This document shows positions 640 through 63,806 of a stretch of DNA of 64,000 bases, in pieces. The DNA comes from Clostridiales bacterium (GTDB taxonomy: Bacteria > Bacillota > Clostridia > Christensenellales > CAG-138), in the NCBI GenBank assembly GCA_012838425.1, contig DUPG01000011.1, positions 489 through 64,488 of the forward strand. Direction: 5' to 3'. How positions within the stretch are numbered: position 1 is the stretch's first letter; each line of letters begins with the position of its first letter. Made by a program: the position numbers and the translations under genes. Below the pieces are notes generated by a model. It was not told where the DNA came from and searched no databases. It worked only from the letters and a program-made list of their open reading frames with translations.

Positions 640-850
640 CTTTACACTGAATGAAGATGCCCTTCGGGCAAATGAAGACGCCTGTGGGCAAATGAAGACA
701 CGCTTGCGCCTGAATGAGGATAAACAAGCGTAGGCGCGCATTGCGCGTCCGCAATTTATGGAGAAAGTAAGCGACACCTCGCCCGAATTAAGGCACGCTG
801 CGCCCGAATGAATACGGCGACAAGCTGCCGAATGGAGAATTCGCTTGTGA
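640..850. repeat. Hairpin-linker array (AATGAAGA linker) with an embedded REP-like palindrome
   Basis: AATGAAGA-tgcccttcgggca-AATGAAGA-cgcctgtgggca-AATGAAGA...; gtaggcgcgcattgcgcgtccgc at 730-752. 781-847 is nearly identical to the reverse complement of ~16400-16468. Confidence 0.85.
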
Positions 851-1022
851 ATAATGAAATTATACGGATAAGAAATGATGGTTTTGGATTTCCCGTTTTC
901 TTTGCACATAACTAAGAAATTGGTGTTTGCATATCATTGAGGGTTAAATTTGATTTCTGTGGACAAAGAAAGAGATATATAATATAGCATAATTCAGGGT
1001 CATAATCATACAAATTTCGAAA

Positions 1023-1135
1023 GCAGACGCGCAATGCGTGCCCATGCAATATTATTTGTCGTTCGGGCGCAGTTCATCTTCATTCAACAGCTTTGCAGTT
1101 GTCGTCATTCGGCGGTAAGGCCGCTGTCTTTATGC
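1023..1135. repeat. REP-like palindrome plus degenerate TCTTCATT hairpin array
   Basis: gacgcgcaatgcgtgcccatgca, then tcttcatt-caacagctttgcagttg-tcgtcatt-cggcggtaaggccgctg. Confidence 0.7.
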
Positions 1136-1164
1136 TTTACATAATAGAAATTAAGTAATATAAT
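1136..1164 (+). promoter_or_regulatory. sigma-A type promoter of the gcv operon
   Basis: TTTACA-17 nt-TATAAT, 43 nt upstream of the gcvT ATG. Confidence 0.65.
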
Positions 1165-1207
1165 AACAAGCAGTGCTTAGGCATCAGAATTCGCTTAGGA
1201 GGGCAAA

Positions 1208-2287
1208 ATGGACTCATTGAAGAAGACTCCGCTGTATGACACTCATGTAAAATTAGGCGGAAAGATGGTTGATTTCGGCGGCTGGGCATTACCCGTTCAG
1301 TACAGCTCTATTTTAGAGGAGCACAAGGCGGTTCGCGAAAGAGCAGGGCTGTTCGACGTATCGCATATGGGCGAAATATTCGTAGAGGGCAAGGACGCGT
1401 TTTCTTTCCTGCAACACATGGTTACAAATGATTTGACAAGCATGACCGAAAACCGCTGCCGCTATTCGCCTATGTGCTATGAGAACGGCGGAACGGTTGA
1501 CGATATTCTCGTATATAAGTTCTCAGATACGCGCTACCTGCTGGTTGTAAACGCAAGCAATACGGATAAGGATTACGAGTGGCTGGTTAAGAATTCAGCC
1601 GGCTTTGATGTAAAATTAGAAAATCAATCGGCTTCATGGGCGCAGCTGGCATTGCAGGGTCCTAAGTTCATGGAAGTCTTAAATAAGTTGAATGTTGAGG
1701 GCGAAATTCCCGCTAAGAATTATACATTTAACCCCGAAATCAAGCTGAATTCGGTTCCCTGCCTGGTTTCGCGCACGGGCTACACAGGTGAGGACGGCGT
1801 AGAGATTTACTGCAAGGCCGAATACGGTGAGAGGATTCACGAAATGCTTATGGAAGCAGGCAAGGATATAGGTATGCTGCCCTGCGGACTTGGCGCAAGG
1901 GATACATTGAGATTCGAAGCCTCAATGCCGCTTTACGGGCATGAGATTACCGCGGATATTACTCCTAAGGAAGCCGGCTTGGGCTTTGCAATAAAGCTGA
2001 ATAAAGAGGAGTTCATAGGTAAGGAAGCGTTGATGGAAGAACCTAAGCGCGTTCGCATAGGCTTGAAGCTCATAGACAAGGGAATAGCAAGAGAGCATTA
2101 CGATGTATATGTTGGCGATAAGCTGGTAGGCTTTACTACATCAGGCGGCATTGCTCCCACGGTAGGCGGCAATCTCGCTATGGCGCTTGTATGCACCTGC
2201 GTAAAGGACGAGCAGATATTCGAAATAGAGGTTCGCAACAAGCGCTTGAAGGCGGAAAAGGTCGCGCTGCCTTTTTATAAGAGATAA
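1208..2287 (+). CDS. gcvT: Glycine cleavage system T protein (aminomethyltransferase)
   Basis: LKKTPLYDTH, GLFDVSHMGEI, SRTGYTGEDGVEI and GLGARDTLRFEA motifs; AGGAGG RBS. Confidence 0.97.
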   Translation: MDSLKKTPLYDTHVKLGGKMVDFGGWALPVQYSSILEEHKAVRERAGLFDVSHMGEIFVEGKDAFSFLQHMVTNDLTSMTENRCRYSPMCYENGGTVDDILVYKFSDTRYLLVVNASNTDKDYEWLVKNSAGFDVKLENQSASWAQLALQGPKFMEVLNKLNVEGEIPAKNYTFNPEIKLNSVPCLVSRTGYTGEDGVEIYCKAEYGERIHEMLMEAGKDIGMLPCGLGARDTLRFEASMPLYGHEITADITPKEAGLGFAIKLNKEEFIGKEALMEEPKRVRIGLKLIDKGIAREHYDVYVGDKLVGFTTSGGIAPTVGGNLAMALVCTCVKDEQIFEIEVRNKRLKAEKVALPFYKR

Positions 2288-2289
2288 GC

Positions 2290-2535
2290 GCGTTCGCTTT
2301 TTTTGAAAGAAAAGTAACAAAAGAACCATGCGCTATGCGCGAATGAAATATTGCTGCGCAACATGAAAACGGCAACGAGTTGCTGAATGAAAACAGCTTC
2401 ATGCTTTGCATGAAATTCAGCTACTCACGAAGTGAGCAATTTAGCTTGCCGAAGGCAGATTCGGCTGAAAGCGACAGCTTTCGATTTAGCTGTTCGCCTT
2501 GATTTTGCAGTAAGCCTTGCAAACAATTTAGCTTA
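2290..2535. repeat. Partial cap element plus ATGAAA- and ATTTAGC-linker hairpin arrays inside the gcv operon
   Basis: ttgaaagaaaagtaacaaaagaac; ATGAAAT-attgctgcgcaac; ATTCAGC-tactcacgaagtgagca-ATTTAGC-ttgccgaaggcag-ATTCGGC-tgaaagcgacagctttcg-ATTTAGC. Confidence 0.85.
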
Positions 2536-2578
2536 TATAACGCGCAAGCGTTAAATAAAAAACATGGAGGTTTATTTT

Positions 2579-2956: not shown

Positions 2957-2957
2957 A

Positions 2958-5749: not shown

Positions 5750-5752
5750 TAA

Positions 5753-6106
5753 GTGGGGCGCTGCCCCATACCCCGCTGCTTTTCTTTGGAAGAAAAGCAG
5801 CAAAATAACAAGCTGTTCAATAATAAATGCAGGGCGAGTTGCTTCCCCTGCATTTTGATTGTATTGGCTTTCTCTTTTAGGGCGCTACGCCATATCCCAT
5901 TACTTTTCTTGAAAAAAAAGCAGCAAAAGAACAAGCTGTTATTTACAGCGTTGCGCAGCAGCATTAAGCTATTTGCGCAGCAAATAATTTAGCTGTTCGC
6001 GCAGCGAGAAATTTAGCATTGCGTAAGCAATATTTAGCTGTTCGCGCAGCGAATAATTCAGCTGTTTAATAGCAAATGCAGGGCGAGTTGCTTCCCCTGC
6101 ATTTTG
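5753..6106. repeat. Two cap elements, an ATTTAGC hairpin array and two copies of a 31-bp palindrome
   Basis: Caps at ~5753-5818 and ~5879-5942; array at 5946-6063; aaatgcagggcgagttgcttcccctgcattt at ~5825 and ~6074. Confidence 0.85.
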
Positions 6107-6283: not shown

Positions 6284-6676
6284 AGGATATTTCATTCACG
6301 CGCAGCGTGTCTTCATTCGCTCCGAAGGAGCGTCTTCATTCGGGCTGTGCCCGTCTTCATGTCCGTAGGACAATCAATGTCCCCATTTTGCGCGTGCAAA
6401 CACGCATGAAGACAGCGGCTTTGCCGCTGAATGAAGATGCCTGCGGCAAATGAAGACAACAGCAAAGCTGTTGAATGAAGACGCCTTCGACGAATGACAA
6501 TAACCGGAAGCTGCTACGCGTAGAAAATGCAGTTTAATAAGTCAGGTTGCGGAGCAATGGTTTATTCTCGATAGGATATTTCATTCACGCGCAGCGTGTC
6601 TTCATTCGCTCCGAAGGAGCGTCTTCATTCGGGCTGTGCCCGTCTTCATGTCCGTAGGACAATCAATGTCCCCATT
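6284..6676. repeat. TCTTCATT/AATGAAGA hairpin arrays including an identical 104-bp direct repeat
   Basis: 6284-6387 equals 6573-6676 base for base; an opposite-orientation array lies at ~6400-6498. Confidence 0.9.
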
Positions 6677-6974: not shown

Positions 6975-7100
6975 ATTATTCCCTCCTCATTTTTTACTGT
7001 TAGCGTTTGCGGAAAATAAAAAAGCTATTCATGGCGTGAATATTAACCGTGCTTATTGGCGAAAGCTATAATACGCAAATTACCGAAAGGAGAGCAGAAT

Positions 7101-10273: not shown

Positions 10274-12289
10274 ATGGAGAGAAATATTGAATTTGAAAAC
10301 AGATTAGCCAACGAGAAATCACCGTATCTGTTGCAGCACAAAAACAACCCTGTTGACTGGTATCCGTGGGGCGATGAGGCTTTTGAGAAAGCAAGAGCAG
10401 AGGACAAGCCCATATTTTTGAGCATTGGATACTCAACTTGCCATTGGTGTCATGTTATGGAGAGGGAGTCCTTTGAGGACGAGGAGGTAGCGCAATTACT
10501 AAACAGGGGCTTTGTATCTATAAAGGTTGACAGAGAGGAGCGCCCCGACATTGATTCTGTGTATATGCAGGTGTGCCAAGCGTTGACGGGCAGCGGCGGC
10601 TGGCCATTAACAATAATTATGGATTCAGAGCAAAAGCCCTTCTTCGCAGGAACATACTTCCCCAAGCACAGCAGCTATGGAGTATTGGGGCTTATGGAGC
10701 TTCTTCCTAAAATATCAGAGCTTTGGGAGAATTCAAGAAGCGACTTGCAGGAAGGCATAGATAAGGTTATGCAGTATGTAAAGCGTTTTGAAGCACACGC
10801 CAACCCCTCGGAGCCGGAAAAGAGCATTCTTCACAACGCATACGCTTCATACAAGGATATTTACGATTCGCGCTTCGGAGGCTTTGGAATCGCGCCCAAG
10901 TTTCCTACTCCGCATAACCTGTTTTTCCTTTTGCGGTACGGCGTACTTGAAAACAGTCAGTTAGCGCTTGATATGGTAACGCATACGCTGAACTGCATGT
11001 ATAGGGGCGGCATATTCGACCATATAGGCGGGGGCTTTTCGCGCTATTCTACGGACAGGCTTTGGCTTGTGCCGCACTTTGAGAAGATGCTGTATGACAA
11101 CGCGCTTTTGCTAATTGCGTATTCCATGGCGCACAGCATTACAAACAAAGCGCATTACGCCTATGTAATAAGGCAGACAGCGGACTATTGCCTTAGAGAG
11201 CTTAGCAGTAAGGAGGGCGGCTTCTATTGCGGTGAGGACGCGGACAGCGAGGGTGTTGAAGGCAAGTTCTACGCATTTTCGCCGCACGAAATAAAGAGCG
11301 TGCTGGGAACAGAGCTTGGAAACAGGTTCAACGGGTGGTATGGCATTACCGAAAAGGGCAATTTCGAGGGCAAGAGCATTCCGAATCTCATAGATAACGA
11401 GCAATTTGCTGAAATTCCAGACGAATTAGAGCTTGCAAAAGCGAAATTGCTGGGGTATCGCAAAAAGCGCACATCGCTTCACAGAGATGAAAAGTGCTTG
11501 ACGGCGTGGAATTCACTTTTAATATGCGGGCTTGTGAACGCGCATTTGGCTTTAAGCGAGCCTCGGTATATTGAAGCGGCTGTGCAGGCGGAGAGGTTTA
11601 TTTCCGAAAAGCTATCAGATGGAAACAGGCTGTATGTGCGCTACATAGACGGCGAGCGCAAGGGCTATGGCAAGTTAGACGATTATGCGTTCTATGCTTG
11701 GGCGTTGATAGAGCTGTATCAATGCACATTCGACACGCAGTACCTGAAAAAAGCTATAAGCATTACAGAAGCTATGTGCGACGAGTTCTTCGATACTTCA
11801 AGCGGGGGCTTTTACTTATATTCGAAAAATGACGAGCAGCTTATTATTCGCCCTAAGGAGAGCTATGACGGCGCGATGCCTTCGGGAAATTCGGTCGCCG
11901 GATTTGTGCTGGATAAGCTGTATAAGCTGACAGGCGAGCTTATCTGGAAGGATAGGGCGATGCTGCAGCATAGCTTCATAAGCGCAAACGCCAAGAATTA
12001 CCCGCTTAGCACAGGCTTTGGCCTGTATGCGCTGACGCTTGCTTTATATCCCTCCGACGAGCTTGTGGCGGTTATGCCCACTCATACCGATTTAGAGATA
12101 ATAAAGGCACGCAGGCTTATGAACCCTAACCTCAGCATACTTGTAAAAACAGCGCAGAACAGAGGCGAGCTTGAAGCGTTGGCGCCATTCACAACTGCTT
12201 TCTCCATAGATAAGGACGCGGAGTTCTTTTTCTGTTCGGGGAATGAGTGCAAAAGCGTGAGGGATTCGATAAAGGAGCGCGTTTGGTAG
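10274..12289 (+). CDS. Thioredoxin-domain protein, YyaL/SPATA20 family
   Basis: [50 protein letters not shown]. Confidence 0.93.
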
Positions 12290-12314
12290 CTGAAGCTCCG
12301 TGCTTCGCGCGGAA

Positions 12315-12612
12315 ATAAAGATACACTTTGCGTGAATGAAGATGCACTAACGCGCGAATGAAAAAAGTCGCTTATGCGAATGAAATATTGCGGGGGCAAC
12401 ATAAATGCTTACGCAATGAAATATTGCGCTTACGCGCAACATGGCTTTTTATTCAGTATTTTTTGCTTGACGATATAGCTTTTCGCTATTATCATTTATC
12501 GTAGGCGTATTTATTCAGCGGCTTTGCTGTATTCATAGCATAGCCGTTTCATGTTGTGCGAAGCACAATATTTCATGTCCGCAGGATATTTCATTATTCG
12601 CATAGCGAATTA
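12315..12612. repeat. ATGAAAT/ATTTCAT hairpin arrays in both orientations between convergent genes
   Basis: ATGAAAT-attgcgcttacgcgcaac at ~12416; TTTCAT-gttgtgcgaagcacaat-ATTTCAT-gtccgcaggat-ATTTCAT-tattcgcatagcgaatt at ~12546-12611. Confidence 0.8.
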
Positions 12613-13116
12613 TTAAACAAGCCTGTAAATCTCTCCGCACGCGATTTTTTCGCCTGAACTCCCTGCCGGCTGTGATGTAAAATCGTCTTGTTGGCTATGT
12701 ATTACAACCGTTCTGCCTATTATGCTTCTAATCGTAAATCTGTTCGTCAATACTGCCATAAAAGCATAGCCATTGTTTGAAAAAAGCGGGGGCAGGTCGC
12801 CTGCGTGCTGCGGGTGCGGGCAGTCTGTCGGGTTGTAGTGTCCGCCGGTCTGGGGGAATGGCTCAACTGTGTTGCCTTCGCAGGAGCTTCCCTCGTGAAT
12901 ATGAAAGGCGAATATAGAGTTGCCGCAGGTGTCGGGTGAAACGGGCAAGCCCTCAACCTCAGCGACTATTATCACTCCCCTGTTCGATTGATAGAAAAGC
13001 GCTTTTCCTGCAATGCCTCTGTGCTTTGCGCTGCCTCTTATTTCGGCAATCGCCTGCGGCTTTGCGTTTGCTAACTCTCTGATGTATGCGGACCTGCTTG
13101 TGATGAACGGAAACAC
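12613..13116 (-). CDS. Cu/Zn superoxide dismutase-family protein
   Basis: FHIHEG, GGHYNP, PHPQHAGDLP, GRTVVIH, KIACG; GTG start after AAAGGAG. Confidence 0.88.
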   Translation of the reverse strand: MFPFITSRSAYIRELANAKPQAIAEIRGSAKHRGIAGKALFYQSNRGVIIVAEVEGLPVSPDTCGNSIFAFHIHEGSSCEGNTVEPFPQTGGHYNPTDCPHPQHAGDLPPLFSNNGYAFMAVLTNRFTIRSIIGRTVVIHSQQDDFTSQPAGSSGEKIACGEIYRLV

Positions 13117-16399: not shown

Positions 16400-16505
16400 A
16401 AGCGAATTCCTCATTCGGCAGCTTGTTGCCGTATTCATTCGGGCGCAGCGTGTCTTAATTCGGGCGAAGGGCATCTTCATTCAGTGCAAAGCGCTGTCTG
16501 CATTT
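16400..16505. repeat. TCTTCATT-type hairpin array between tRNA-Ser and recF
   Basis: tcatt-cggcagcttgttgccg-tattcatt-cgggcgcagcgtg-tcttaatt-cgggcgaagggca-tcttcatt-cagtgcaaagcgctg. Confidence 0.8.
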
Positions 16506-23249: not shown

Positions 23250-23556
23250 ATAAACAATCGCAGAGGGCGCATTGCGCGTCCGCTTTTAGTGCTATCGCAA
23301 TGAAGACACGCTACGCGTGAATGAAGATGCCCTGCGGGCAAATGAAGACGGGCACAGCCCGAATGAAGACAATGCTTCGCATTGAATGAAGCCAGCGACG
23401 ATGTCGAATAATGCGCAGGGTGCGCATTGCGCGTCCGTTTTATATTGCAACAGCCACACCACGCACCGTACAATATCCCATGTTCCGCTATTCCCACAGC
23501 GACATATAGCTGTTCGCCAGCAACATTAAGCTGTTCGCGTCAGCGAACAATTTAGC
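23250..23556. repeat. Clearest AATGAAGA hairpin array, two REP-like palindromes and a short TTTAGC array
   Basis: AATGAAGA-cacgctacgcgtg-AATGAAGA-tgccctgcgggca-AATGAAGA-cgggcacagcccg-AATGAAGA-caatgcttcgcattg-AATGAAG at 23299-23391; gcgcattgcgcgtccg at ~23267 and ~23422. Confidence 0.9.
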
Positions 23557-25325
23557 TATTCCCTCGGCGAATCCTCTATCTCCCTAATCCACTCGGCGCA
23601 TTTTGCCTCGCTTGGCATAAACAGCCCTTTCCTTGGCGACAAGGACAGCACCGTCGCTTGAGGACCGTCGGGCGAGCAGGAGCGCTTGAACTGACTTGCG
23701 AAAAATCGCTTATAGAACGATTTGAGCCACTTTTTAATCTCGTCGGGCGAATAATCGTCCGCAAAGGCATCTAATGCCAATTCGTAAACCGATTTCGGGG
23801 ATAAATTCTTATATAGCGCGTGAAAAATGAAAAAGTCGTTCAGCTCATACGAACCGATAAGCTTTTGCGTGAACTGCACTATATTGCCGTTATCGCCGGG
23901 CAGAAGCTCAGGGCTTATGGGGGTTTCCAATATGTCGCAAAGCGCTTCGCGAAGCTCTAAGGAGGAATCGTCGGCAATCGCCTTAATAATCGCCTGCATA
24001 AGCGTTTTCGGAATTGAGCCGTTCACGCCATACATGCTCATATGGTCGCCGTTATATGTGCAGAAGCCAAGCGCCGACTCCGACAAATCGCCCGTTCCCA
24101 CAACCAAGCCGCCTTCACCGTTTGCAATATCCATAAGCACAAGCGTACGCATTCTCGCCTGCGCATTCTCAAATACAACATTTTTATTGCTTATGTCATG
24201 GCGAATTTCTTTAAGGTGCTGAGTAACGGATTCCGTCAAATCTATTGTTTCAAAGCGAACCCCTGTCGCCGCGCACAGCTTTTTTGTGTTCTCACGCGTG
24301 CGGTTTGAGGTCCCAAAGCAGGGCATTGACAGCGCATGCACGAATTCAGCGTTCTTGCCCATAATTTTTGCCGCTTCTAAGGATACTATTAGCGCCAAGG
24401 TCGAATCCAAGCCGCCCGAAACGCCCAGCACGAACGATTGCGCGTTAATTTCAGCCGCCCTGTGCGCCAATCCGTGCGCTAATATCTGAATAATCTCTTT
24501 TGCCTGTGTAATCGAAAAGGCTTCGGGAATAAACGGCCTTTTCTTCATGCCACGATACTCTGTTTCGCAGCTTGCCGGCTCTGAATTTTCAAGGGTTTCG
24601 CTAACTTGTGCAATCGCCATAGTGTTTTCAAAGGGCTTGCACTCCGCAGCTAATTCTCCGTTATCAAATATAAGGCAATGCCCGGAATAAACAAAGTCGG
24701 TAGTGGATTCGCCCAAGCCCGAATTAGCGTAAAGAATAGTCTTTTTCTTGGCGCGCAGCTTTTCACGGCGCGCGTTGGCGCTTCCCAATATCTCAATAGA
24801 AGAATCAAGCCTGCACTCTATCGACGGAAAAGGCAGGTTCATATCGCTTTCCGCTCCGAATGTGACGGCAAAAGCAATAATGCCACAGCCTATTGAGCTT
24901 ACAACAGGAACTCTGCCTATGCCCTGAATTGAAATAGCCTCAGGCGCAGTATTTGAAAAATATCGCGGGTTTGCGGCTGTGTTGGGTACAACTCCAAAAA
25001 TTTCGCCGTTCCGTATCACCACCGCGCAATCGTACAGCGAGGAACCGCTCATTATAGGCATTCCGAATACCGTTATGACGCTGCAGTCAGCTGTTTCACG
25101 CATAATCCTTTGAAGCGCTGAAGCTGATGCGTTTATCAGAGTCGGCTGAAAAAACAAATCGTCGCAGGTGCAGCCCGTAAGTATGAGCTCGGGCAAGCAA
25201 AGCAGGTCAAGCCCTGCATCGTCGGCCTTCCTGATAGCCGAAATTATCGCGTCTGCGTTATTGGTCGGGGCGGCAACCTGAATCTTAGGTGCAAAAGCCC
25301 CCGCTTTAATTGTGTTAACGTTCAT
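23556..25325 (-). CDS. nadE: NAD+ synthetase with a degenerate N-terminal glutaminase (nitrilase-fold) domain
   Basis: Synthetase motifs SGGLDSTL, ENAQARMR, GTGDLSE, SPELLP and SQFKRSC are intact; the N-domain has PEL.LTG.TC.DLF. Confidence 0.92.
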   Translation of the reverse strand: MNVNTIKAGAFAPKIQVAAPTNNADAIISAIRKADDAGLDLLCLPELILTGCTCDDLFFQPTLINASASALQRIMRETADCSVITVFGMPIMSGSSLYDCAVVIRNGEIFGVVPNTAANPRYFSNTAPEAISIQGIGRVPVVSSIGCGIIAFAVTFGAESDMNLPFPSIECRLDSSIEILGSANARREKLRAKKKTILYANSGLGESTTDFVYSGHCLIFDNGELAAECKPFENTMAIAQVSETLENSEPASCETEYRGMKKRPFIPEAFSITQAKEIIQILAHGLAHRAAEINAQSFVLGVSGGLDSTLALIVSLEAAKIMGKNAEFVHALSMPCFGTSNRTRENTKKLCAATGVRFETIDLTESVTQHLKEIRHDISNKNVVFENAQARMRTLVLMDIANGEGGLVVGTGDLSESALGFCTYNGDHMSMYGVNGSIPKTLMQAIIKAIADDSSLELREALCDILETPISPELLPGDNGNIVQFTQKLIGSYELNDFFIFHALYKNLSPKSVYELALDAFADDYSPDEIKKWLKSFYKRFFASQFKRSCSPDGPQATVLSLSPRKGLFMPSEAKCAEWIREIEDSPRE

Positions 25326-26749: not shown

Positions 26750-26880
26750 AGGTTGCTTCGCAACGCAAGTATTCGCTACGCAAATAGCTGAATGTTGCTT
26801 CGCAACGCTGAAAATAATAGTGTGTTCTTTTGCTACTTTTCTTTCAAGAAAAGAATCGGGGTTTGGGGTGGCGCCCCAAA
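26750..26880. repeat. TTCAGC array plus cap element
   Basis: tattcgctacgcaaata-gctgaat-gttgcttcgcaac-gctgaaa...tgttcttttgctactttctttcaagaaaag..ggggtttggggtggcgcccca. Confidence 0.85.
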
Positions 26881-26916: not shown

Positions 26917-26944
26917 GCAATGACATAAAGAATTGAATATGGAT

Positions 26945-27220
26945 TTTAGCGTTGAAGAAGAGGAGTACAGAGCATGCGGCATGAAAGAGAGCGGTTCCGT
27001 TGGGCTGAAAGAACCGTATGCAAGGCACTCTGGAAGGTCGCTTCGGAGCTATCTTTGTGAACGCGTCGGGAAATGACAGTAGCAAAGACGGTATGCCCCC
27101 GTTACGGGCGTTAAGAGCGGATTGAAAGAAACTGTTATTGTAGCTTTCAATCAACAAAGGTGGTACCGCGAGAAATATTTTGCCTTCCTCGTCCTTTGAA
27201 GGACCGGGAGGGCTTTTTTC
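26945..27220 (+). ncRNA. T-box riboswitch upstream of valS
   Basis: AGAGA/GCTGAAA stem-I apex, AGTAG motif, T-box AAAGGTGGTACCGCG at 27156-27170, terminator ending in TTTTTT; candidate GTC (Val) specifier near 27037. Confidence 0.9.
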
Positions 27221-31151: not shown

Positions 31152-31322
31152 GCACACCCTGCGGGTGAATGAAGACGCGCCTGTGGCATCTTCATTCACG
31201 CAAAGCGTGTCTTCATTGCGATATCACTAAAAGCGGACGCGCAATGCGCGCCCCTGCAATTGTTTATCTTCATTCGGGCGCAAGCCCGTCTTATTTCAGC
31301 GACTGCGTCGCTGGCTTCATGG
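31152..31322. repeat. Hairpin-linker array with REP-like palindrome between convergent folC and ileS
   Basis: caccctgcgggtg-AATGAAGA; TCTTCATT-cacgcaaagcgtg-TCTTCATT; cggacgcgcaatgcgcgcccctgca at 31234-31258. It is a near-inverted copy of ~23250-23330. Confidence 0.85.
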
Positions 31323-34474: not shown

Positions 34475-34740
34475 TAAAAATACGCCCTGCTCCACAACGG
34501 GACGCAGAGGCGCGCGTTACCACCCGAATTGAAGAAAGCTGCTTCTATTATTTCTATTTCGCTTTTCTCCCACTCAAAACCCTTAACGCAGGTATGCGGC
34601 ACCGGCTAATTATATTCCAAATATGTTCACCGATGCGCTCACAGAGGATACCATACTGTCAGCAGCATACTGCCTTTCACCATACGCAGCTCGCTGAATG
34701 TGCTCAAACCAGCAGGCGTGTTCTGCTCAACGCTTTATTT
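34475..34740 (-). ncRNA. T-box riboswitch upstream of ileS
   Basis: Minus strand AGCGAG/GGTGAAA apex, ATC (Ile) specifier at 34647-34649, T-box AATTCGGGTGGTAACGCG at 34513-34530, terminator with T-tract. Confidence 0.88.
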
Positions 34741-34881: not shown

Positions 34882-36021
34882 ATGGAAAATGGCGTTTTAG
34901 GCACTAAGCAGCGCGACACATACTTGGATATTGCCAAGGCTATCGGTATTCTTATGGTAATATACGCGCATGTATCTTTGAGCGGCATTTTATACACAAC
35001 CTTTTACGCTTTTCATATTCCTTTGTTCTTCGTAGTCGCGGGAATGACATTCAACAATAAAAAGCACACCTCCTTTAAGACCTTCGCTGCTAATAAAGCC
35101 AAGCGCTTGCTTTTGCCCTACCTTATTTATTCGTTAGCGACATTCGCGTGGTGGGCTTGGGTTGAGGTTCCTATTAGCGGCACATTGGGCGGCGCAGGCA
35201 AGACCATATTCGACTCATTCATTCAGATATTTTTGGCGCAAGGCTCATTGGGCTATATGACGCATAACTTGGCCTTATGGTTCGTGCCCTGCTTATTTAT
35301 TGCCGAAATAATTTACTACTTCGTAAACAAGCTGTCCAAAGCCACTAAAATTACTATTTGCGTGGCGTTTGCTTTGCTGGGCTGGGGAATAAACATACTG
35401 GGTCAGACTCATTCATGGCTTATTAACCTGCCTTGGAGCCTTGAGGTAGCTTTTTCGGCACAGCTTTTTATTCTGATAGGCGACCTTATGGGCAGCAATG
35501 GCGGCAGGCAGAGGATTAGAGAGCATGTTACGAAGTTTAAGATTCCGTACCTGATTGCTATTCCTTTCGCATGTGTGGCGCTTTACTGCATAGCAGAGCT
35601 TAACATAAACACCTCTGCGCTTATTGACCCGTTTGCTTTCGCTGAAATGCGTGTTTCAATGGGCTCTAACGCGCTGGGAAATCCGCTTTTATTCTACTTC
35701 AACGCTATGTTAGGCGTATGGATTGTGCTGATTATATCCGTTCTGCTTGAAAGGTTAGTTATGAAGCGCGCGGAGTACGGCAATTCTGTTCTGCTTTGGC
35801 TGGGCGTAAATTCTTACGGGCTTATGTGCGTGCATTTCCCCGTAAAGCGCAGGGCTATTGCTTTTATCGCTGATTTGTTCCGCGTTTCGTCAAGCTATGC
35901 AAGCTATGACCTGCTGTATAGCTTCCTTGCGTTTATCGTAACCATGCTGTTCTCTGTGATTATAGTTGTGGTGTCAGACGCCTTCAAGCAGGCTATATCT
36001 ATAAAAGAATTCCGAGAATAG
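34882..36021 (+). CDS. Acyltransferase family 3 (membrane O-acyltransferase)
   Basis: RDTYLDIAKAIGILMVIYAH, FHIPLFF, RLLLPY, LWFVPCLF; about 10 hydrophobic segments. Confidence 0.9.
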   Translation: MENGVLGTKQRDTYLDIAKAIGILMVIYAHVSLSGILYTTFYAFHIPLFFVVAGMTFNNKKHTSFKTFAANKAKRLLLPYLIYSLATFAWWAWVEVPISGTLGGAGKTIFDSFIQIFLAQGSLGYMTHNLALWFVPCLFIAEIIYYFVNKLSKATKITICVAFALLGWGINILGQTHSWLINLPWSLEVAFSAQLFILIGDLMGSNGGRQRIREHVTKFKIPYLIAIPFACVALYCIAELNINTSALIDPFAFAEMRVSMGSNALGNPLLFYFNAMLGVWIVLIISVLLERLVMKRAEYGNSVLLWLGVNSYGLMCVHFPVKRRAIAFIADLFRVSSSYASYDLLYSFLAFIVTMLFSVIIVVVSDAFKQAISIKEFRE

Positions 36022-36230
36022 CTGCCCTGCGGAGCGAATGAATACAGCGATAAACAGCTGAATAAAGACGCCTTATGGGCAAATGAAACATCAAGTTATA
36101 GCGCATGCAAGGTGCGCTTTTTCATTTTGACACTTTATCTGACAACGCAATATCCTTTTTCATTCTCCACAGGCATATATATTCAGTGCGCAAGCATTGT
36201 CTTCATTCGGGCATAGCCCGCCCTTCCCCG
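36022..36230. repeat. Degenerate hairpin-linker arrays
   Basis: gaatgaata-cagcgataaacagctg-aataaaga; attcagtgcgcaagcattg-tcttcatt-cgggcatagcccg. Confidence 0.65.
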
Positions 36231-38194: not shown

Positions 38195-38257
38195 TTCCAT
38201 TCACGCGCAAGCGTGTATTCATTCAGCGGCAAAGCACTGTCTTCATGTCCTACGGGC
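38195..38257. repeat. TCTTCATT-type hairpin array upstream of parA
   Basis: catt-cacgcgcaagcgtg-tattcatt-cagcggcaaagcactg-tcttcat-gtcctacgggc. Confidence 0.75.
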
Positions 38258-46045: not shown

Positions 46046-46690
46046 ACACCCCACCAAGCACCACAGACACACAGGCACAGCCCCTTTGAATCCGCCTAAT
46101 TACTATTAAAGAATTACAAGATCAATAACTCAATACATCTTAATATACTATATTATATACTTACATCTTCCACATACCACCCTCATCTTCTCTATATTCA
46201 CACACTTTTCACACCCTCATACCAAACCCATGTTACAAATCAATATTTTCATACCCGAAGAAATCTCATATTACAATCGCATAATATTTCATACCGAAGC
46301 TATCTCATTCCCGTAACAACATTCAAATACTTTCCCCCACACCCCACCAAGCACCACAGGCACACAGGCACTGCCCTTTTGAATCCGCCTAAATACTATT
46401 AAAGAATTACAAGTTCTAATAGCCCAATGCATCTTAATATACTATATTATATACTTATTCAACCACGACCAATCCCTGTTTTCTATACTTACCCTGCCCA
46501 TTGACAGCCACATATAAGACTTATATTACGAAGCAATATTTCATTCCCGCAATAAATCTCATATTACAATCGCACAATGTTTCTTACCGAAGCTATCTCA
46601 TTCCCGTAACAACATTCAAATACTTTCCCCCACACCCCACCAAGCACCACAGACACACAGGCACAGCCCTTTTGAATCCCAGCTCTTTAT
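46046..46690. repeat. Tandem repeat with a 293-bp period (about 2.2 copies)
   Basis: caccccaccaagcaccacag starts at 46047, 46340 and 46633; long conserved blocks flank a divergent ~75-bp middle. Confidence 0.9.
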
Positions 46691-49265: not shown

Positions 49266-49325
49266 AGTGTTCTTTTACTGGTTTTCTTTCAAGAAAAGCA
49301 GTGGGGTACAGGGGCAAGGCCCCTG
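49266..49325. repeat. Cap element copy bordering oriC
   Basis: tgttcttttactggttttctttcaagaaaagcagtggggtacaggggcaaggcccctg. Confidence 0.85.
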
Positions 49326-52493: not shown

Positions 52494-52556
52494 TTTGTGA
52501 CTGTGCCATCATTCAGCGGCATAGTCGCTGTATTCATTCAATATGCAGCATTGTCT

Positions 52557-53255
52557 TCATTTTATAACTAAATGCAATAGATACAGCACCACCAAGTGCG
52601 CAGGATAAAACGCGTAGAAAACGAACTTCATGCTTTTGAATAGGCGCATATTGTATGCGGGCTTTCCGTTATATAAAAGCAGAATGATAAGCGCTATTGC
52701 ATATCCCAAGTAATGCAAGCCGCGGTCTAATGAGAAGGAATACATATAAAGCACCATAAACGCGAACACGCTTGCGAAAGACAGCGCGTATATCGAAGCG
52801 TCGCCGCCTGCGTTCTTATATTCAGTCAGCACATACATAAATAATATGAGAAGCACGCCCCAAGCTCCGTAATCCGTGTAAAAAATATCGCCCAGCAACG
52901 CAATTATCAGACTAAGCGCAATTCCTAACAGCCTTGGTTGTACCTTGTCGTAAACCATAATCGCTGATAATCCCAGTATCAGCGTAACAAATATGTTCAG
53001 CCGAAAGCCTGCCCCTGCCATTTTCATTAAAAGCATAAAAGGCAGCTGTGAAACCACAGCGAATATTACCAATCGTATAAAATACCTTTTCAGGCTGCGT
53101 GTATGAATATACCCCTGCGCGATAGAAAATGCGAATATGGGAAACGCTATGCGCCCTATTGCGTTCAATAAAACAACCCTTTGCGGCAGAGCATAGCTCA
53201 AATGGTCGCAGAACATAGCGATTATAGCGATTATCTTTAACAGCAGGCTCGTCAT
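52557..53255 (-). CDS. TraX-family membrane protein (acyltransferase-like)
   Basis: LKIIAIIAMFCDH, GRIAFPIFAF...GY.HT, SQLPF, DYG, YNG, FY.FYP.HL. Confidence 0.85.
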   Translation of the reverse strand: MTSLLLKIIAIIAMFCDHLSYALPQRVVLLNAIGRIAFPIFAFSIAQGYIHTRSLKRYFIRLVIFAVVSQLPFMLLMKMAGAGFRLNIFVTLILGLSAIMVYDKVQPRLLGIALSLIIALLGDIFYTDYGAWGVLLILFMYVLTEYKNAGGDASIYALSFASVFAFMVLYMYSFSLDRGLHYLGYAIALIILLLYNGKPAYNMRLFKSMKFVFYAFYPAHLVVLYLLHLVIK

Positions 53256-53304: not shown

Positions 53305-53555
53305 AATTATTTGCTTACGCAAATAGCTGAATGTTGCTTCGCAATGTTAAATTTTTCGCTTTGCGAAAAGCTGAATTGAAAGCTGCGCTTTCAGCTAAAT
53401 TTGCCTTCGGCAAGCCAAATTACTCGCTTCGTGAACAGCTAAATTATTCACTACGCAAATAGCTGAATGTTGCTCACGCAATGCTGTAAATAATAGCTTG
53501 TTCTTTTGCTTCATTCGCTCCAAAGGAAGCGTCTTTATCGCTGTCTTCATGTACG
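53305..53555. repeat. Longest GCTAAAT/GCTGAAT hairpin array (about 8 modules) plus partial cap and TCTTCAT modules
   Basis: tatttgcttacgcaaata-gctgaat-gttgcttcgcaat-gttaaat-ttttcgctttgcgaaaa-gctgaat-tgaaagctgcgctttca-gctaaat-ttgccttcggcaa-... Confidence 0.9.
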
Positions 53556-53574
53556 CACAGCGCGCCGACTCCGC

Positions 53575-54504
53575 ACTCAAACAAATAACGTTGGCTTTTC
53601 GATAGCGTCTGGGCTTTTGAAAACGAAAGATTTTTTAACCGATATGCTTGGCTGGGTAGATACCAACTGGCTATTCCGTGAAACTGATTTTCCGCTTCTG
53701 CTTGCGCACATATTCACGGTAACATTTGTTGACGGCTTGACAGATGATGTTATACATACAGCAAGCGTGCACCGCGGAGACGATGTTGAGATGCCCGCAG
53801 CACCCGAGCATGAGGGCTATACCTTCACAGGCTGGGACAAAAACGGCAACAGAATTATGAAGGATACCGTAATTACAGCGCAGTACAGTATCAATTTTTA
53901 TACCGTAACCTACAAGGACTGGGACGGGAAAACGCTGAAAAAGCAAACAGTAGCGCACGGCGCGGACGCAACACCACCCGCCGACCCCGTCAGAGAGGGT
54001 TATACCTTTACGGGCTGGGACCACGACGGTAAGAACATAACCCAAAACACAATAATAACAGCACAGTACAGTATAAAAACATATACGGTGCAGTTCGTTG
54101 ACTGGAACGGCACTGTCCTCAAAATCGAACAGGTAGAGCACGGTAAAGACGCAACACCACCCGCCGACCCCGTCAGAGAGGGTTATACGTTCACAGGCTG
54201 GGACCACGACGGAAAGAATATCACGCAAGATACGACCATTAGCGCACTATATGTGGAGAATTTCTTAATGGGCGATGTTAACAGCGACGGCAAGGTCAAC
54301 ACGGGCGACGCAGTAATGCTGCTTAAACATGTTGCGGGCACGGCTAAACTGAACGAACAGCAATTAGCTGTCGCGGATTTCAACGGGGACAACAAGGTTA
54401 ATACGGGCGACGCTACGGCAATATTGCTTTATATCGTTAAGCAACACAAAAAAGGGGCGGGGTCCACTTTTTGTGCTATTGCAATTAAGGAACGCTTCGC
54501 GTGA
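53575..54504 (+). pseudogene. 5'-truncated secreted protein: three InlB-B/Listeria-Bacteroides repeats plus a C-terminal type I dockerin
   Basis: Three TV.F.D.DG...P.REGYTFTGWD repeats; dockerin GDVNSDGKVNTGDA...ADFNGDNKVNTGDA. No RBS, start codon or signal peptide; the open frame begins inside the repeat array. Confidence 0.75.
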
Positions 54505-54680
54505 ATGAAGACGGGCTTTAACCCGAATGAAGACAGCGACAAGTCGCTGTATGACGATAAAGCAGAAACGGGAATATGCAAAAATGCAGGGGTAATGTTT
54601 TCCCTGCATTTATTATTAAATGGCTTGTTCCTTTGCTTCTTTTCTTTCAAGAAAAGTAGCAGGGGCGGGGCGGCGCCCCA
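54490..54680. repeat. AATGAAGA array, aaatgcaggg...ccctgcattt palindrome and cap element
   Basis: AATGAAGA-cgggctttaacccg-AATGAAGA-cagcgacaagtcgctg; palindrome at ~54582-54611; cap at ~54622-54681. Confidence 0.85.
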
Positions 54681-54690
54681 TAACGCTAAC

Positions 54691-56114: not shown

Positions 56115-56410
56115 AGGAAATTCTCTTACGGGAATGAAATAATTCGCTTCTCGAATAATGAAATATACTGCGGATATGAAATATTGCGCTTTCGCGCAGC
56201 ATTATGAGGTTCGCTTGCGTGAACAGCTAAATTATTCGATACGCGAAAAGCTAAATTTGCCTTCGGCAAGCTAAATTCTCACTTCGTGAGCAGCTAAATT
56301 ATTTGCTTACGCAAATAGCTGAATGTTGTTGCGCAACGCTGTAAATGATTGCTTGTTCTTTCGCTGCTTTTCTTTCAAGAAAAGCAGTGGGGTTTGGGGC
56401 AAAACCCCAA
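56115..56410. repeat. ATGAAAT array, GCTAAAT array and cap element
   Basis: ATGAAAT modules at ~56133-56200; six GCTAAAT/GCTGAAT modules at ~56209-56340; cap at ~56350-56410. Confidence 0.9.
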
Positions 56411-58382: not shown

Positions 58383-58392
58383 ACGCCCTCCG

Positions 58393-59852: not shown

Positions 59853-59871
59853 ATATCCCACCTGTTCGTCT

Positions 59872-59938
59872 TATTTCCCGGGAAATACTGATTTTTCACC
59901 ATTTTATTTCCACTTTGAGCAATATTTCCCGGGAAATA
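59872..59938. promoter_or_regulatory. Two Noc-binding sequences (NBS)
   Basis: Perfect palindrome TATTTCCCGGGAAATA at 59872-59887 and 59923-59938, matching the B. subtilis NBS consensus. Confidence 0.8.
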
Positions 59939-59949
59939 CTTTTCAATAT

Positions 59950-60804: not shown

Positions 60805-60817
60805 TTTTCCTCCCTCT

Positions 60818-61125
60818 TGGGGCTTTACCCCTCGCCCCGCTTCTTTTCTTGAAAGAAAAGAAGCAAAAGAACACTTTATTTTTTCAGCGTTGCGTAGCAA
60901 CATTTAGCTATTTGCGCAAGCAAATAATTTAGCTATTCACAAGGTGAATAATTTAGCTGTTCGCATATGCGAACCCCGCCCCACTTCTTTTCTTGAAAGA
61001 AAATCAGCAAAAGAACAAGCTGTTTTTCTCTATAATTCATTTGCCCGCAGGTCATCTTCATTCAGTGCGAAGCACTGTCTTCATTCACGCGCAGCGTGTC
61101 TTCTTTCAGCGACCCTGTCTCTGTC
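60818..61125. repeat. Two cap elements, an ATTTAGC array and a TCTTCATT array (overlapping the ecfA1 3' end)
   Basis: Caps at ~60818-60875 and ~60973-61024; array at 60885-60974; tcttcatt-cagtgcgaagcactg-tcttcatt-cacgcgcagcgtg at ~61055-61098. Confidence 0.88.
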
Positions 61126-61955
61126 TTTATTATTTTCGCAATATGCTCCGCCAGCTCCTCCGCCGTAAGCGCGTGAGTAGGCAGCATGCCACGCGCAATA
61201 AGCCTGTTGCGCAAATCCACCACAGCGGGAACGTCTAACCTCAACGAACGCAATGCCGACGCCTGCGCGAACACCTGCTTTGGCGTGCCTTCAAGAGCTA
61301 TTGAGCCTTGCGACATAACAACAACTCTGTCGGCTATTATGGCTTCCTCCATATACTGAGTTATCATAACTATTGTGATGCCCTCGCTGTTAAGCCTTTG
61401 AATTATTTTTATTACCTCAGCCTTGCCGGCAGGGTCTAACATTGAAGTCGCTTCGTCTAAAACAAGCACCTCGGGCTGCATTGCCAATAAGCCTGCAATT
61501 GCTACGCGCTGCTTTTGCCCGCCTGACAGCATATGCGGAGCGGCTGTGGCGTAGCTTTCCATTCCCACAGCTTTTAGCGCCATATTAACGCGTGTGCGTA
61601 TTTCCTTCGGGTCTATACCCAAATTCTCGGGCGCAAACGCTACATCGTCCTCAACTATTGTGGTTACTATCTGATTATCGGGATTCTGAAAGCACAGGCC
61701 GACAGTCTTTCTTATGTCTAACGCGCGCTTTTCGTCCTTCGTGTCCATTCCCTTTACAAGCACTGTGCCTGATGTCGGTAATAAAAGCCCGTTTAAGAGC
61801 TTTGCCAACGTGCTTTTGCCCGAACCGTTATGCCCGACAATGCACAAAAATTCCCCCGGCTGTATTGAAAGGGACACATTATTCAAAGCAAAGAAAGCTG
61901 TTTCCTTGCCTGTGTTGTATTCGTAGCTGACCGAGTTTAACTCAATAATGCCCAT
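61062..61955 (-). CDS. ecfA1: ECF transporter ATPase EcfA1
   Basis: GHNGSGKST, FQNPDNQ, LSGGQKQR, LDEATSMLDP. Confidence 0.93.
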   Translation of the reverse strand: MGIIELNSVSYEYNTGKETAFFALNNVSLSIQPGEFLCIVGHNGSGKSTLAKLLNGLLLPTSGTVLVKGMDTKDEKRALDIRKTVGLCFQNPDNQIVTTIVEDDVAFAPENLGIDPKEIRTRVNMALKAVGMESYATAAPHMLSGGQKQRVAIAGLLAMQPEVLVLDEATSMLDPAGKAEVIKIIQRLNSEGITIVMITQYMEEAIIADRVVVMSQGSIALEGTPKQVFAQASALRSLRLDVPAVVDLRNRLIARGMLPTHALTAEELAEHIAKIIKTETGSLKEDTLRVNEDSASH

Positions 61956-62047
61956 GTATTATCCTTTTTTTGCTGCATAGTGCCGAATACGGCTGTATTA
62001 GTTTACCACAGTTTTGGTGGAATGCAAAATGAAAATGTGGCGCTTAT

Positions 62048-62160
62048 CGGGGCTTTGTCCCACACCCTGCTGCTTCTCTTTGAAAGAAAAGAGGCAAAAG
62101 AACAAGCTGTTTTCCTTGTAATCCTTTGCCCGAAGGGCATCTTCGTTCGCGCCTTGCGGG
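62048..62160. repeat. Cap element plus short hairpin array
   Basis: ggggctttgtcccacaccctgctgcttctctttgaaagaaaagaggcaaaagaacaagctgtt; tgcccgaagggca-tcttcgtt. Confidence 0.78.
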
Positions 62161-62211
62161 ACCTTGAATATTTCCTTTCAAACCACAAAAACTAATTCTG
62201 AGGTGAACTGT

Positions 62212-63519
62212 ATGCGAAAAATCAAGTTACTAATCCTATGCGCGATAATATTATGTGCGCTTTTGCTTGCTAACGCGTGCGGAATGGGCGCAAGCCGCGT
62301 AAAAAGCGGCACGAAAATTGACGGTATTGACATATCAAGCCTGACCGAAGCCGAAGCAAAGGCAAAGCTAAGCGAACACTATAACACCATGCTAAAAGAA
62401 AGCATAATCACTATTCAGGCCGACAGAACGCACAGATACAGCGCGCAGGAGCTTGGATTTTATGTTGATTTTTCGAATGCGCTGAATTCCGCATTGAATC
62501 AGGGCCGGTTCACAAGGTCGCATGAGTACGCTTCCGAAATCGTACTCAACCATGACGCCGCACGCGAAAAGCTTGAATCCATAGCCAACAGGGTGAACGC
62601 TGAGCCGAAAGCGCCTTCCGCCGAATATATAAATGGCGAAATCGTGTTCACAGGCGGCGAAAACGGAAAAAGGCTCGATATAAGCAATATTTTGGAACAG
62701 CTTGAAGCGGCGAAGGGCTCTGTTCTTAAAAGCGGCGCCACAATACAAGCAAGATTAGACGAAATCACATACAGCGCAGGCGTTGATATAGAAAATCTCA
62801 AAGCGAATTACACTCTGCTTGGCGAATTCAAAACCTCGTTTTCAGAATCGCCGCTGAATGGCGAAAACAGGGTAAAAAACATAATCAAGGCAGCGCAAAT
62901 GATTGACGGAGCTGTTATAAAGCCCGACGAAGAATTCAACACGAACGAAATATTAGGCGACAGGAACAAGGAAAACGGCTGGTACAAGGCGCCTGCTATT
63001 TGGAACGGAAAGTACAGGCTTGAATACGGCGGCGGTGTGTGTCAGGTTTCCTCTACTTTATATAATGCGGTGCTGCTTGCCAATTTGGAGGTTGTTGAGC
63101 GCAGACCTCATTCATGGCCTATGAGCTATGTTCCAATAGGGCGCGACGCGACAATTTCGACAGGCGGCGCGAATTTTCGCTTCAGAAACAGCACTTCAAG
63201 CGACATAATAATAGGCGCAATAGTGGATAAACGCGCAGAAACCATTACAGTACGCATTTTCGGAAAGCATGAGGGTAATTACGCGAGGGTCGAGATACTT
63301 TCTAAAGAAGTCGATACGATAGAGGCGCCCGAGCCTGAATATATTGAGGATACCACATTAAGCGCAGGCGAACAGCGTGTAGAGCGAAAAGAGCGAACGG
63401 GCAGAAAATCCGTTACTATTAGAATTTTTTACGACGAAAGCGGAAAGGAAATCGCCCGCGAAACAGTATCGGAGGATACTTATAGGGCGATTAGGGCAAG
63501 GATTAGGGTTGGAGTTTAG
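62212..63519 (+). CDS. VanW-family (YoaR-like) exported protein with PG-binding and G5 domains
   Basis: Lipoprotein-like N-terminus (LLANAC), R..NI..AA..IDG, GGGVCQVSSTLYNA, ERRPHS, GRDAT, G5-like C-terminus. Confidence 0.88.
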   Translation: MRKIKLLILCAIILCALLLANACGMGASRVKSGTKIDGIDISSLTEAEAKAKLSEHYNTMLKESIITIQADRTHRYSAQELGFYVDFSNALNSALNQGRFTRSHEYASEIVLNHDAAREKLESIANRVNAEPKAPSAEYINGEIVFTGGENGKRLDISNILEQLEAAKGSVLKSGATIQARLDEITYSAGVDIENLKANYTLLGEFKTSFSESPLNGENRVKNIIKAAQMIDGAVIKPDEEFNTNEILGDRNKENGWYKAPAIWNGKYRLEYGGGVCQVSSTLYNAVLLANLEVVERRPHSWPMSYVPIGRDATISTGGANFRFRNSTSSDIIIGAIVDKRAETITVRIFGKHEGNYARVEILSKEVDTIEAPEPEYIEDTTLSAGEQRVERKERTGRKSVTIRIFYDESGKEIARETVSEDTYRAIRARIRVGV

Positions 63520-63534
63520 CAAGAGCTAAGCTCC

Positions 63535-63612
63535 AAATGAAGACGGGCTTGCGCCCGAATGAAGACAGCGGTTTTACCGCTGAACGAAGACGGCAACAGG
63601 TTGCCGAATGAA
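63535..63612. repeat. AATGAAGA hairpin array
   Basis: AATGAAGA-cgggcttgcgcccg-AATGAAGA-cagcggttttaccgctg-AACGAAGA-cggcaacaggttgccg-AATGAATA. Confidence 0.88.
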
Positions 63613-63806
63613 TATATCAAGTGCAAGTAAAAAGCAAAGCAGCCTACGCATTGTCAATAAAAACACTTATATCAACAGAGAAATCCAAGCAGACAGGAAA
63701 CTTTTTATATATACAAGGGTAATTATAAAATAAACGACTTACCGTTGTCTTCATTCATGCGAATGCGTGTCTTATCTGCTCGCGGGGCGAAAAAAAGGGG
63801 GACTTA

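Follow-up and report, generated by a model that had tools for sequence, protein, structure and literature searches.

In CRISPR arrays, direct repeats of ~23-47 nt alternate with unique spacers and are accompanied by cas genes, and the BOX element of Streptococcus pneumoniae is a modular intergenic repeat in which a variable number of hairpin-forming middle modules, 45-59 nt long and nearly identical to each other, lies between conserved ends. Repetitive extragenic palindromes (REPs) are described, in passages of PMC3733652, as imperfect palindromes, 20-40 nt long, whose foot carries a GTAG or CGTC tag. Gut-1 (Rfam RF01706) is given, in the parts of Weinberg et al. 2010 (PMC2864571) that list it, as RNA 'Y', cis-reg 'n' and 'Human gut only', from environmental sequence only. 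Here we examine arrays of short, variable hairpins separated by the constant linker AATGAAGA in a 64,000-nt stretch of a Clostridiales bacterium genome (the window: C29:489-64488, on contig DUPG01000011.1 of assembly GCA_012838425.1, which comprises 35 contigs and 1.48 Mb, is 94.8% complete and is called G000 below). The repeat is real, structure-constrained and multi-copy, its loci differ by whole units, and it lies mostly after stop codons in the sense orientation. That it is a Gut-1-like dispersed repeat we consider probable; the fuller account, in which the G000 arrays are a diverged, amplified form of Gut-1, a repeat resembling REPs and bacterial interspersed mosaic elements (BIMEs) that is transcribed as 3' tails and remodelled by whole units, we hold with about even confidence.

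Hairpin units, linkers and their order

The window contains 31 copies of the linker AATGAAGA, where 2.39 would be expected and no more than 10 appear in any of 100 shuffles; the whole of G000 (1.48 Mb) contains 188. Among the 46 G000 spacers flanked by two exact AATGAAGA linkers, 39 are end-closed perfect hairpins with stems of at least 4 bp, a number that compares with a mean of 0.37 and a maximum of 4 in 1000 shuffles of the spacers; the remaining seven are one-mismatch hairpin variants, and 37 of the 46 are distinct in sequence. Stem covariation is present in these spacers: Watson-Crick pairs fill 129 of 170 cells in the 34 distinct 13-nt spacers (column-shuffled mean 84, maximum 98 in 500 shuffles), and several pair types are found at each of stem positions 2-4. 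These stems thus exceed their shuffled controls, and the description in an earlier note on this DNA of neighboring hairpins that differ in sequence yet stay paired is upheld. At 23299-23391 the array reads as that note gave it, with AATGAAGA separating cacgc-tac-gcgtg, tgccc-tgc-gggca, cgggc-aca-gcccg and caatgc-ttc-gcattg.

When one linker mismatch is tolerated, 151 linker-plus-hairpin units are found in G000 against 42 in the reversed genome; ~118 confident units are spread over 61 G000 loci, with 1-6 units per locus, and the longest chain has 8 linkers. With exact linker cores, complete linker-hairpin-linker units number 83 in G000, and a single one remains once the genome is shuffled. Thirty of the 83 lie on the window's contig, where 11 of 34 spacers hold such a unit (~17 by a hand tally with one linker mismatch), a count that falls short of the "more than 20" spacers first reported. 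Unit length is 19-25 nt, with 21 nt as the commonest period (12 of 46 units), and the hairpin modules span 9-19 nt, their flanking words carrying no GTAG or CGTC tag. Small open reading frames (ORFs) beginning at the linker's ATG can be discounted, since units of 19-25 nt keep no reading frame.

The stems are drawn from about a dozen recurring types (CACGC, CGGGC, CAATGC, CGCC, TGCC(C), CGCTCC, CAGCGAC, CGGCAAC and a few more), and loops differ among G000 units of one stem type. Of 81 units, 67 are closed by a C-G pair; the commonest loops are TTT, TGC and TTC, and on the linker strand the loops run T..C in G000 and in two relatives, G001 and G003. Order and neighbor counts were taken from 23 filtered arrays, the 8-unit array on contig C23 being left out. 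Three of the four stem-type pairs seen at least three times in these arrays occur in both orders, and the same stem type stands in adjacent units in 0 of 43 cases (~4 expected from type frequencies, by our own estimate). At three loci an identical cagcgac-aag-gtcgctg tail and identical downstream sequence follow different hairpins; loci with a conserved flank differ by whole units. The limited vocabulary in varying order and number is therefore confirmed, as is the view that the arrays are neither a plain tandem repeat nor a BIME of two REPs. The idea that all loci might instead be copies of one colinear element fails for G000, where module order is not colinear, and holds for G003, whose element is a colinear composite of ~190 nt (below). 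Units inside one array share one orientation, head to tail, and both array orientations are mixed within the 64-kb window. The G000 organism is found in digester and biogas metagenomes, 14 DNA runs containing at least 96% of the sampled words, and metagenome contigs from independent DNA runs stop at the arrays.

AATGAAGA is one of at least three linker types in G000. A second family, ATTTAGC (21 pairs), has the loops GAA, GTAA and GCA. These complement TTC, TTAC and TGC, the loops found in the AATGAAGA family, so that GCTAAAT is the proper orientation of the ATTTAGC family; the third is ATGAAAT. Arrays often end in AATGAAAT. GCTAAAT arrays are regularly joined to a module in which a GGGGC hairpin and CCCC are combined with a CTTTTCTT hairpin and AAAAGAACAAGC; this module has no Rfam match and is kept across genera of the family (L135 in G001, L141 in G003, L150 in a third genome, G005). 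A palindrome that is both REP-like and terminator-like, G(T/C)AG-GGGCGCGCATTGCGCGTCCG with a T-run after it, often adjoins AATGAAGA arrays; it has ~20 copies genome-wide, at least two linker words lie within 150 nt of 21 of its 54 core matches (both strands counted), and it is common to G000 and G001 (7 places in G001). The G000 spacers are mosaics of a few module types.

Gut-1 in relatives of the source genome

G001 belongs to the same genus as G000 (86% complete, 360 contigs), and G003 to a different genus of the same family. Pairs of AATGAAGA number 46 in G000 and 0 in G001, and in 39 other relatives a search for such pairs gave one match each in two, neither with a hairpin spacer. Pairs of GTGAAAT number 0 in G000, 37 in G001 and 43 in G003, with the same hairpin-linker design; each of the two same-genus species uses one linker or the other, never both. 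G001 and G003 have stems unlike those of G000 but the same C-G closing pair and T..C loops. The GTGAAAT arrays of G001 adjoin a GCGCAATGCGCG palindrome that also flanks G000 AATGAAGA arrays; coding identity between the two genomes is 72-79%, and synteny is broken beside the array.

The Gut-1 consensus, CAaUGAAAU-hairpin-GUGAAAU-hairpin-GUGAAAU-hairpin-GUGAAAU, likewise consists of a constant linker and variable paired modules, and loci of G003 and of viral contigs in IMG/VR score 85, 77.5, 71.4, 71.1, 66.8 and 62.6 bits against RF01706, whose curated gathering score is 50 bits. The earlier note had not recognized the arrays as a described family; with relatives' arrays matching at 62.6-85 bits that no longer stands, although the window's own arrays score below the cut-off. 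Across the family, Gut-1 is found at E <= 0.001 in 35 of 101 genomes and 19 of 50 genera, 25 genomes having matches above the cut-off. When 41 candidates per genome were scored, Gut-1 was usually present in multiple copies, which numbered 36 in G001, 25 in G003, 24 in G267 and 18 in G379, and the whole of G000 gave 4 matches at E <= 0.001 (best E 3.0e-5). In the window the best scores are 30.5, 28.7 and 21.8 bits, all from ATGAAAT or GCTAAAT arrays, and at Rfam gathering thresholds the window yields T-box and tRNA only.

The features of variable but paired stems, C-G closing and UUC-type loops are found in the G000 arrays as in Gut-1. Where Gut-1 has three consecutive hairpins, the G000 arrays have 2-8 head to tail with a different linker word (0 GTGAAAT pairs), and the first Gut-1 linker, aUGAAAU, differs from AAUGAAGA by two letters. 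We read the AATGAAGA arrays as a local variant of Gut-1 because the design is identical, the linker is near and AATGAAAT a frequent array end, the use of linkers is exclusive and the GCGCAATGCGCG palindrome is shared; this assignment is inferred and does not come from a score above the cut-off. In the literature searched on Gut-1 and on Clostridia repeats there is no description of such arrays; Additional file 1 of PMC2864571, which discusses Gut-1, lay outside that search.

The G003 repeat is composed, colinearly over ~190 nt, of a Gut-1 half, a center (GAAATAAATCC...) and a lower-scoring inverted half. It usually abuts a two-way terminator and, on IMG/VR contigs, also a tRNA gene; read in one direction, it ends in a hairpin with a T-run. 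Its predicted RNA fold, at -80.9 kcal/mol against -58.0 +/- 4.7 for shuffled sequence (z -4.86), has a long-range helix enclosing three small hairpins, and this helix is altered on both sides between copy types. Doublets of a plus and then a minus Gut-1 match, the latter 14-47 nt after the former, occur in G003, G134, G234 and G338. The G000 arrays are looser: some loci have plus arrays, terminator-like hairpins and minus arrays, others a single array.

On the viral contigs of IMG/VR, 10 of 190 GTGAAAT triples (8 loci) have two hairpin spacers and are Gut-1 elements beside tRNA genes, because of which they probably lie on host flanks. Gut-1 doublets stand right after tRNA-gene terminators on the viral-called contigs of L317, L341, L390, L396, L400, L403 and L413; these may mark provirus borders or be an artefact of contig choice. 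The sole AATGAAGAC match on viral contigs was set aside as a plain tandem repeat. In eight other family genomes, sampled at 15-40 kb each with a de novo chain finder, arrays were found in G003 only, a sample too small to speak of absence. A scan of genome contigs for three AATGAAGA words gave, among the matches listed, mostly unrelated 7-nt and 21-nt repeats; the only listed matches with AATGAAGA beside GC hairpins were L038 and L103, both from rumen Clostridia bins, and the Prevotellaceae loci L083 and L109. The listed matches also include, in many unrelated phyla (cyanobacteria, Bacteroidota, Proteobacteria; within L011-L130), AATGAAGA at a 21-nt period with a variable 13-mer that has no hairpin potential and, in Prevotellaceae, runs of an AATGAAG heptamer beside GC-rich hairpins.

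Genomic position and competing explanations

Position could be judged for 47 of 53 G000 arrays. Of these, 34 face the 3' end of a gene, 27 of the 34 in sense orientation, and the G001 arrays at 3' ends are 7 sense to 1. For the 30 G000 arrays with a co-oriented upstream gene, the median distance from stop codon to array is 45.5 nt, with 15 arrays within 37 nt; several arrays overlap the stop or the last codons, and a strict terminator lies between stop and array in 4 of the 30 and after the array in 7. A simpler rule, that arrays point away from the nearest gene on either strand (35 of 47), was rejected: it is carried mostly by the 3' ends (27 vs 7, compared with 8 vs 5 at 5' ends) and fails in G003. 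On RNA-library contigs from two studies the neighboring genes are covered, and the array at 23311-23336 is present at a depth of 4-36, a figure summed over copies and open to DNA carry-over, which gives a weak hint of array transcription. The arrays and joined modules of the window, with window positions, are listed below.

650-720, plus strand: AATGAAGA array of 3-4 units, then a GTAG-tagged palindrome at ~735-765
1077-1109, minus strand: AATGAAGA-type units, linker with at most 1 mismatch
2400-2563, minus strand: GCTAAAT-type array (ATTTAGC on the plus strand)
5963-6066, minus strand: GCTAAAT-type array (ATTTAGC on the plus strand), attached to a CTTTTCTT-hairpin/AAAAGAACAAGC module
6310-6361, minus strand: 3-unit AATGAAGA array, the left copy in a ~100-nt local direct duplication
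6405-6481, plus strand: AATGAAGA array with 4 linkers
6599-6650, minus strand: AATGAAGA array, right copy of the ~100-nt local direct duplication
12314-12364, plus strand: AATGAAGA-type array, ~25 nt past the stop of the 10274-12289 ORF
12541-12620, minus strand: array with ATGAAAT linkers that matches Gut-1 below the threshold (30.5 bits, E 0.061)
16408-16504, minus strand: AATGAAGA-type array with 5 linkers; a tRNA gene lies on one side and the next ORF on the other
23299-23392, plus strand: the earlier note's clearest case, 5 linkers and 4 perfect hairpins, with the GCGCATTGCGCGTCCG palindrome on both flanks
23497-23561, minus strand: GCTAAAT-type array (ATTTAGC on the plus strand), beside the stop of the 23556-25325 ORF
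26752-26812, plus strand: GCTGAAT-linker units, then a CTTTTCTT-hairpin module
31168-31285, mixed: one plus unit, then minus units around the palindrome at 31229-31262, starting 17 nt past the stop of 29883-31151
36037-36068, plus strand: AATGAATA/AATAAAGA-linked units, after the 34882-36021 ORF
38216-38247, minus strand: AATGAAGA-type units
52531-52561, minus strand: AATGAAGA-type units at the stop of the 52557-53255 ORF
53305-53505, plus strand: GCTAAAT/GCTGAAT array
54504-54549, plus strand: AATGAAGA array; its first A is the last letter of the TGA stop of 53506-54504
56132-56340, plus strand: ATGAAAT array (Gut-1 28.7 bits), then GCTAAAT array (Gut-1 21.8 bits)
60904-60975, minus strand: GCTAAAT-type array (ATTTAGC on the plus strand)
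61055-61131, minus strand: AATGAAGA array overlapping the 3' end of the 61062-61955 ORF
63536-63614, plus strand: AATGAAGA array with 4 linkers, 17 nt past the stop of 62164-63519
5754-5834, 26835-26880, 49266-49313, 54635-54680, 56360-56401, 60978-61024 and 62075-62111: copies of the conserved GGGGC-hairpin/CCCC/CTTTTCTT-hairpin/AAAAGAACAAGC composite
About 735-765, 23262-23295, 23418-23450 and 31229-31262: the G(T/C)AG-GGGCGCGCATTGCGCGTCCG palindrome

Apart from the arrays, the window holds an above-threshold T-box at 26943-27199 (plus strand) ahead of a 908-aa ORF, and a second T-box-like leader at 34495-34739 (minus strand; 87.9 bits against a gathering score of 93) upstream of a 1039-aa ORF (31335-34454, minus strand). 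A low-GC stretch at 44-52 kb (GC 0.41, strong negative GC skew) contains a 293-bp tandem repeat of 2.2 copies with 85% matches at 46046-46679. Elsewhere in G000, the N-terminal part of a G001 type IV pilin-like protein has 25 matches on at least 15 contigs, which points to a large family of pilin-like paralogues in this 1.48-Mb genome.

We propose that each unit combines a short single-stranded linker, rich in A and with TGAA or TAAA at its core (AAUGAAGA, AUGAAAU and GCUAAAU in G000; GUGAAAU in relatives), and a GC-clamped hairpin whose stem has 4-7 bp, whose closing pair is C-G and whose loop is of the U-N-C type. The arrays would be transcribed as 3' tails of mRNAs, where stacked hairpins might serve as end-points of, or barriers to, 3'-to-5' decay and read-through, as REPs do in Escherichia coli; they may grow, shrink and swap units via slippage or ectopic recombination at identical linkers, and their stems would drift through paired changes, with identical neighbors being lost. 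The 3'-tail function is a tentative part of this proposal, and we give it distinctly less credence than the Gut-1-like identity of the repeat. Several observations weigh against the proposal. The window's AATGAAGA arrays have no Gut-1 match even at E <= 10, so their homology to Gut-1 rests on design, shared flanks and intermediate linkers. Thirteen of the 47 face the 5' end of a gene (8 of them point away from it and 5 toward it), G003 has no orientation preference (7 vs 7), and some arrays lie outside obvious transcripts, past a strong terminator or in the interval from a terminator to the promoter of the next gene (C18, C4). Among single non-Watson-Crick pairs on the sense strand, G.U is not in excess (12 G-T vs 19 A-C). 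On the non-linker strand the loops read GNA or GNRA closed by C-G, which is a very stable type of DNA mini-hairpin and also fits a single-stranded DNA role; wobble count and loop type settle neither an RNA nor a DNA role.

Such a DNA role is the core of one alternative, in which REP-type single-stranded units are copied or moved in trans by a Y1 HUH transposase of the REP-associated tyrosine transposase (RAYT) type that reads a hairpin and a fixed flanking word; arrays would build up because every inserted unit recreates the target. The loops of the non-linker strand and the missing wobble bias agree with it, and G001 has a RAYT-like gene (159 aa, PF01797 27.9 bits, HxH and Y motifs; L161 2401-2880, G001:C50) that is convergent with radA and has TGATATT-linked hairpins in its upstream flank. 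Homologues of this gene occur in 27 of 301 genomes of the order, with GTAG-word hairpins flanking it at L184, L168 and L171, and the G(T/C)AG-tagged palindrome lies near arrays in both G000 and G001. The syntenic site of G000 coincides with an assembly gap: radA ends ~120 nt short of the end of C10 and the pilin gene runs off the end of C5, so that absence of the gene from G000 is undemonstrated. Searches of G000 found none of PF01797 (Y1/RAYT), PF00078 (RT) and PF07282 (TnpB) in a genome 94.8% complete, and the Y1 proteins of G001 and G003 gave no tblastn match there better than E 0.07. A metagenome scan with the G001 protein left the G000 gap unfilled, returning no close relative, only matches of at most 60% identity over part of the protein, and in G003 an IS200-type TnpA at a contig end was found and no RAYT-like gene. 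PF01797 occurs in 32 of 81 family genomes, in 12 of 25 with Gut-1 and 20 of 56 without (a hand tally that assumes the 81 to lie within the 101, and by which Y1 genes are no commoner in genomes with Gut-1); Y1 transposases are too common in the family for a specific link to the arrays. No such arrays were seen in 428 kb around 110 RAYT-like loci, and array orientation tracks the neighboring gene, not the replication arm, with both orientations mixed within 64 kb. We regard this alternative as unlikely. Of the earlier proposal that an enzyme shuffles the arrays unit by unit, the modular, whole-unit differences stand, whereas the assembling enzyme has not turned up. A bolder form of that proposal, which we think very unlikely, would make each 19-25 nt unit a mobile or copyable module, the smallest known, inserted at an existing linker by an HUH-type or other structure-reading enzyme; linker words would then switch with enzyme specificity, and Gut-1 would be the footprint of a new copy-and-insert system, not an RNA gene.

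A functionless, minisatellite-like repeat that spreads via slippage or template switching at palindromes and is tolerated where harmless would account for the species-specific linkers, the variable unit numbers and local duplications, the extension of arrays into ORF ends, the breaks of metagenome assemblies at arrays and, again, the lack of wobble bias. We consider such a neutral origin quite unlikely, given that at least three genomes from two genera retain the design, with its TGAA-type linker, C-G closing pair and T..C loops, despite stem turnover, that Gut-1 is kept in 19 of 50 family genera, and that neither the sense orientation of 27 of 34 arrays at 3' ends nor the 0 of 43 identical neighbors sits well with it. 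Stand-alone small RNA genes, as which Gut-1 was first classed where PMC2864571 lists it (RNA, not cis-regulatory), would suit the T-run hairpin at which the G003 composite ends in one reading direction; they are very unlikely in view of the dozens of copies per genome, copies that start at stop codons or right after a terminator, both orientations as inverted pairs, and the fact that no promoter was seen before the arrays, though none was searched for. Least probable of all, in our estimate, is a platform of double-stranded DNA on which the linkers are spaced by about two helical turns and to which a nucleoid protein or topoisomerase binds at gene ends, in the manner of gyrase or IHF on BIMEs. 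The 21-nt commonest period (12 of 46) and arrays at gene ends, in convergent spacers and outside transcripts would be expected from it, but helical phase is not kept because unit length varies from 19 to 25 nt, and perfect pairing of variable stems is useless in a duplex unless the hairpins extrude.

Significance and comparison with known repeats

The repeat is a striking and true one, yet a variant of a catalogued family of undescribed function. New here is that Gut-1, an orphan Rfam motif since 2010, is placed in named genome bins of one Clostridia family as a high-copy, modular intergenic repeat, often in inverted doublets beside terminators and tRNA genes, and that its linker word is replaceable wholesale between sister species of one genus with the hairpin design kept. 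Its function becomes testable, whether as mRNA 3'-end protection, read-through control or a role at the DNA level, and the arrays offer a Firmicute counterpart to REP/BIME biology. In practical terms, they break short-read assemblies and lengthen or shorten predicted ORF ends.

With CRISPR the arrays share the regular alternation of constant and variable parts, but their constant part is 8 nt and unstructured and their variable palindromes, of about a dozen types, recur among some 60 loci of 1-8 units, a distinction judged without a search for cas genes. BOX, compared by description, is likewise a modular Firmicute intergenic repeat, with modules that differ from those of G000 in that the latter are 19-25 nt long and unlike their neighbors.

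The likeness to REPs, BIMEs and REP doublets forming hairpins (REPINs), as these are characterized in parts of PMC3333891 and PMC3116915, lies in short, high-copy extragenic palindromes that are clustered with short linkers, species-specific and mostly at gene 3' ends; the inverted doublet typical of REPINs is clear in G003, G134, G234 and G338 and appears in G000 at some loci only. G000 hairpins of 11-17 nt contrast with imperfect palindromes of 20-40 nt, units run head to tail in one orientation per array where REPs in BIMEs alternate, and the conserved part is the linker, not the stem. G000 units also carry no GTAG or CGTC tag, a separate G(T/C)AG palindrome adjoining many arrays, and no RAYT was found in G000, where the syntenic site lies at two contig ends.

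From Gut-1 the G000 arrays differ in their linker, AAUGAAGA (also GCUAAAU and AUGAAAU), because of which the two extra A-U/G.U pairs of the Rfam model are impossible, in their length of up to 8 units, their mixed order and their scores below the gathering score; and where the entries of PMC2864571 give a human-gut-only non-coding RNA, G000 has a high-copy repeat in a genome found in digester metagenomes. They share with Gut-1 at least three short, GC-clamped hairpins with variable, covarying stems and CUUCG/UUC-type loops, joined by a constant, purine-rich linker of 7-8 nt with UGAAA, and the arrays of relatives from the same genus and family belong to Gut-1 proper.

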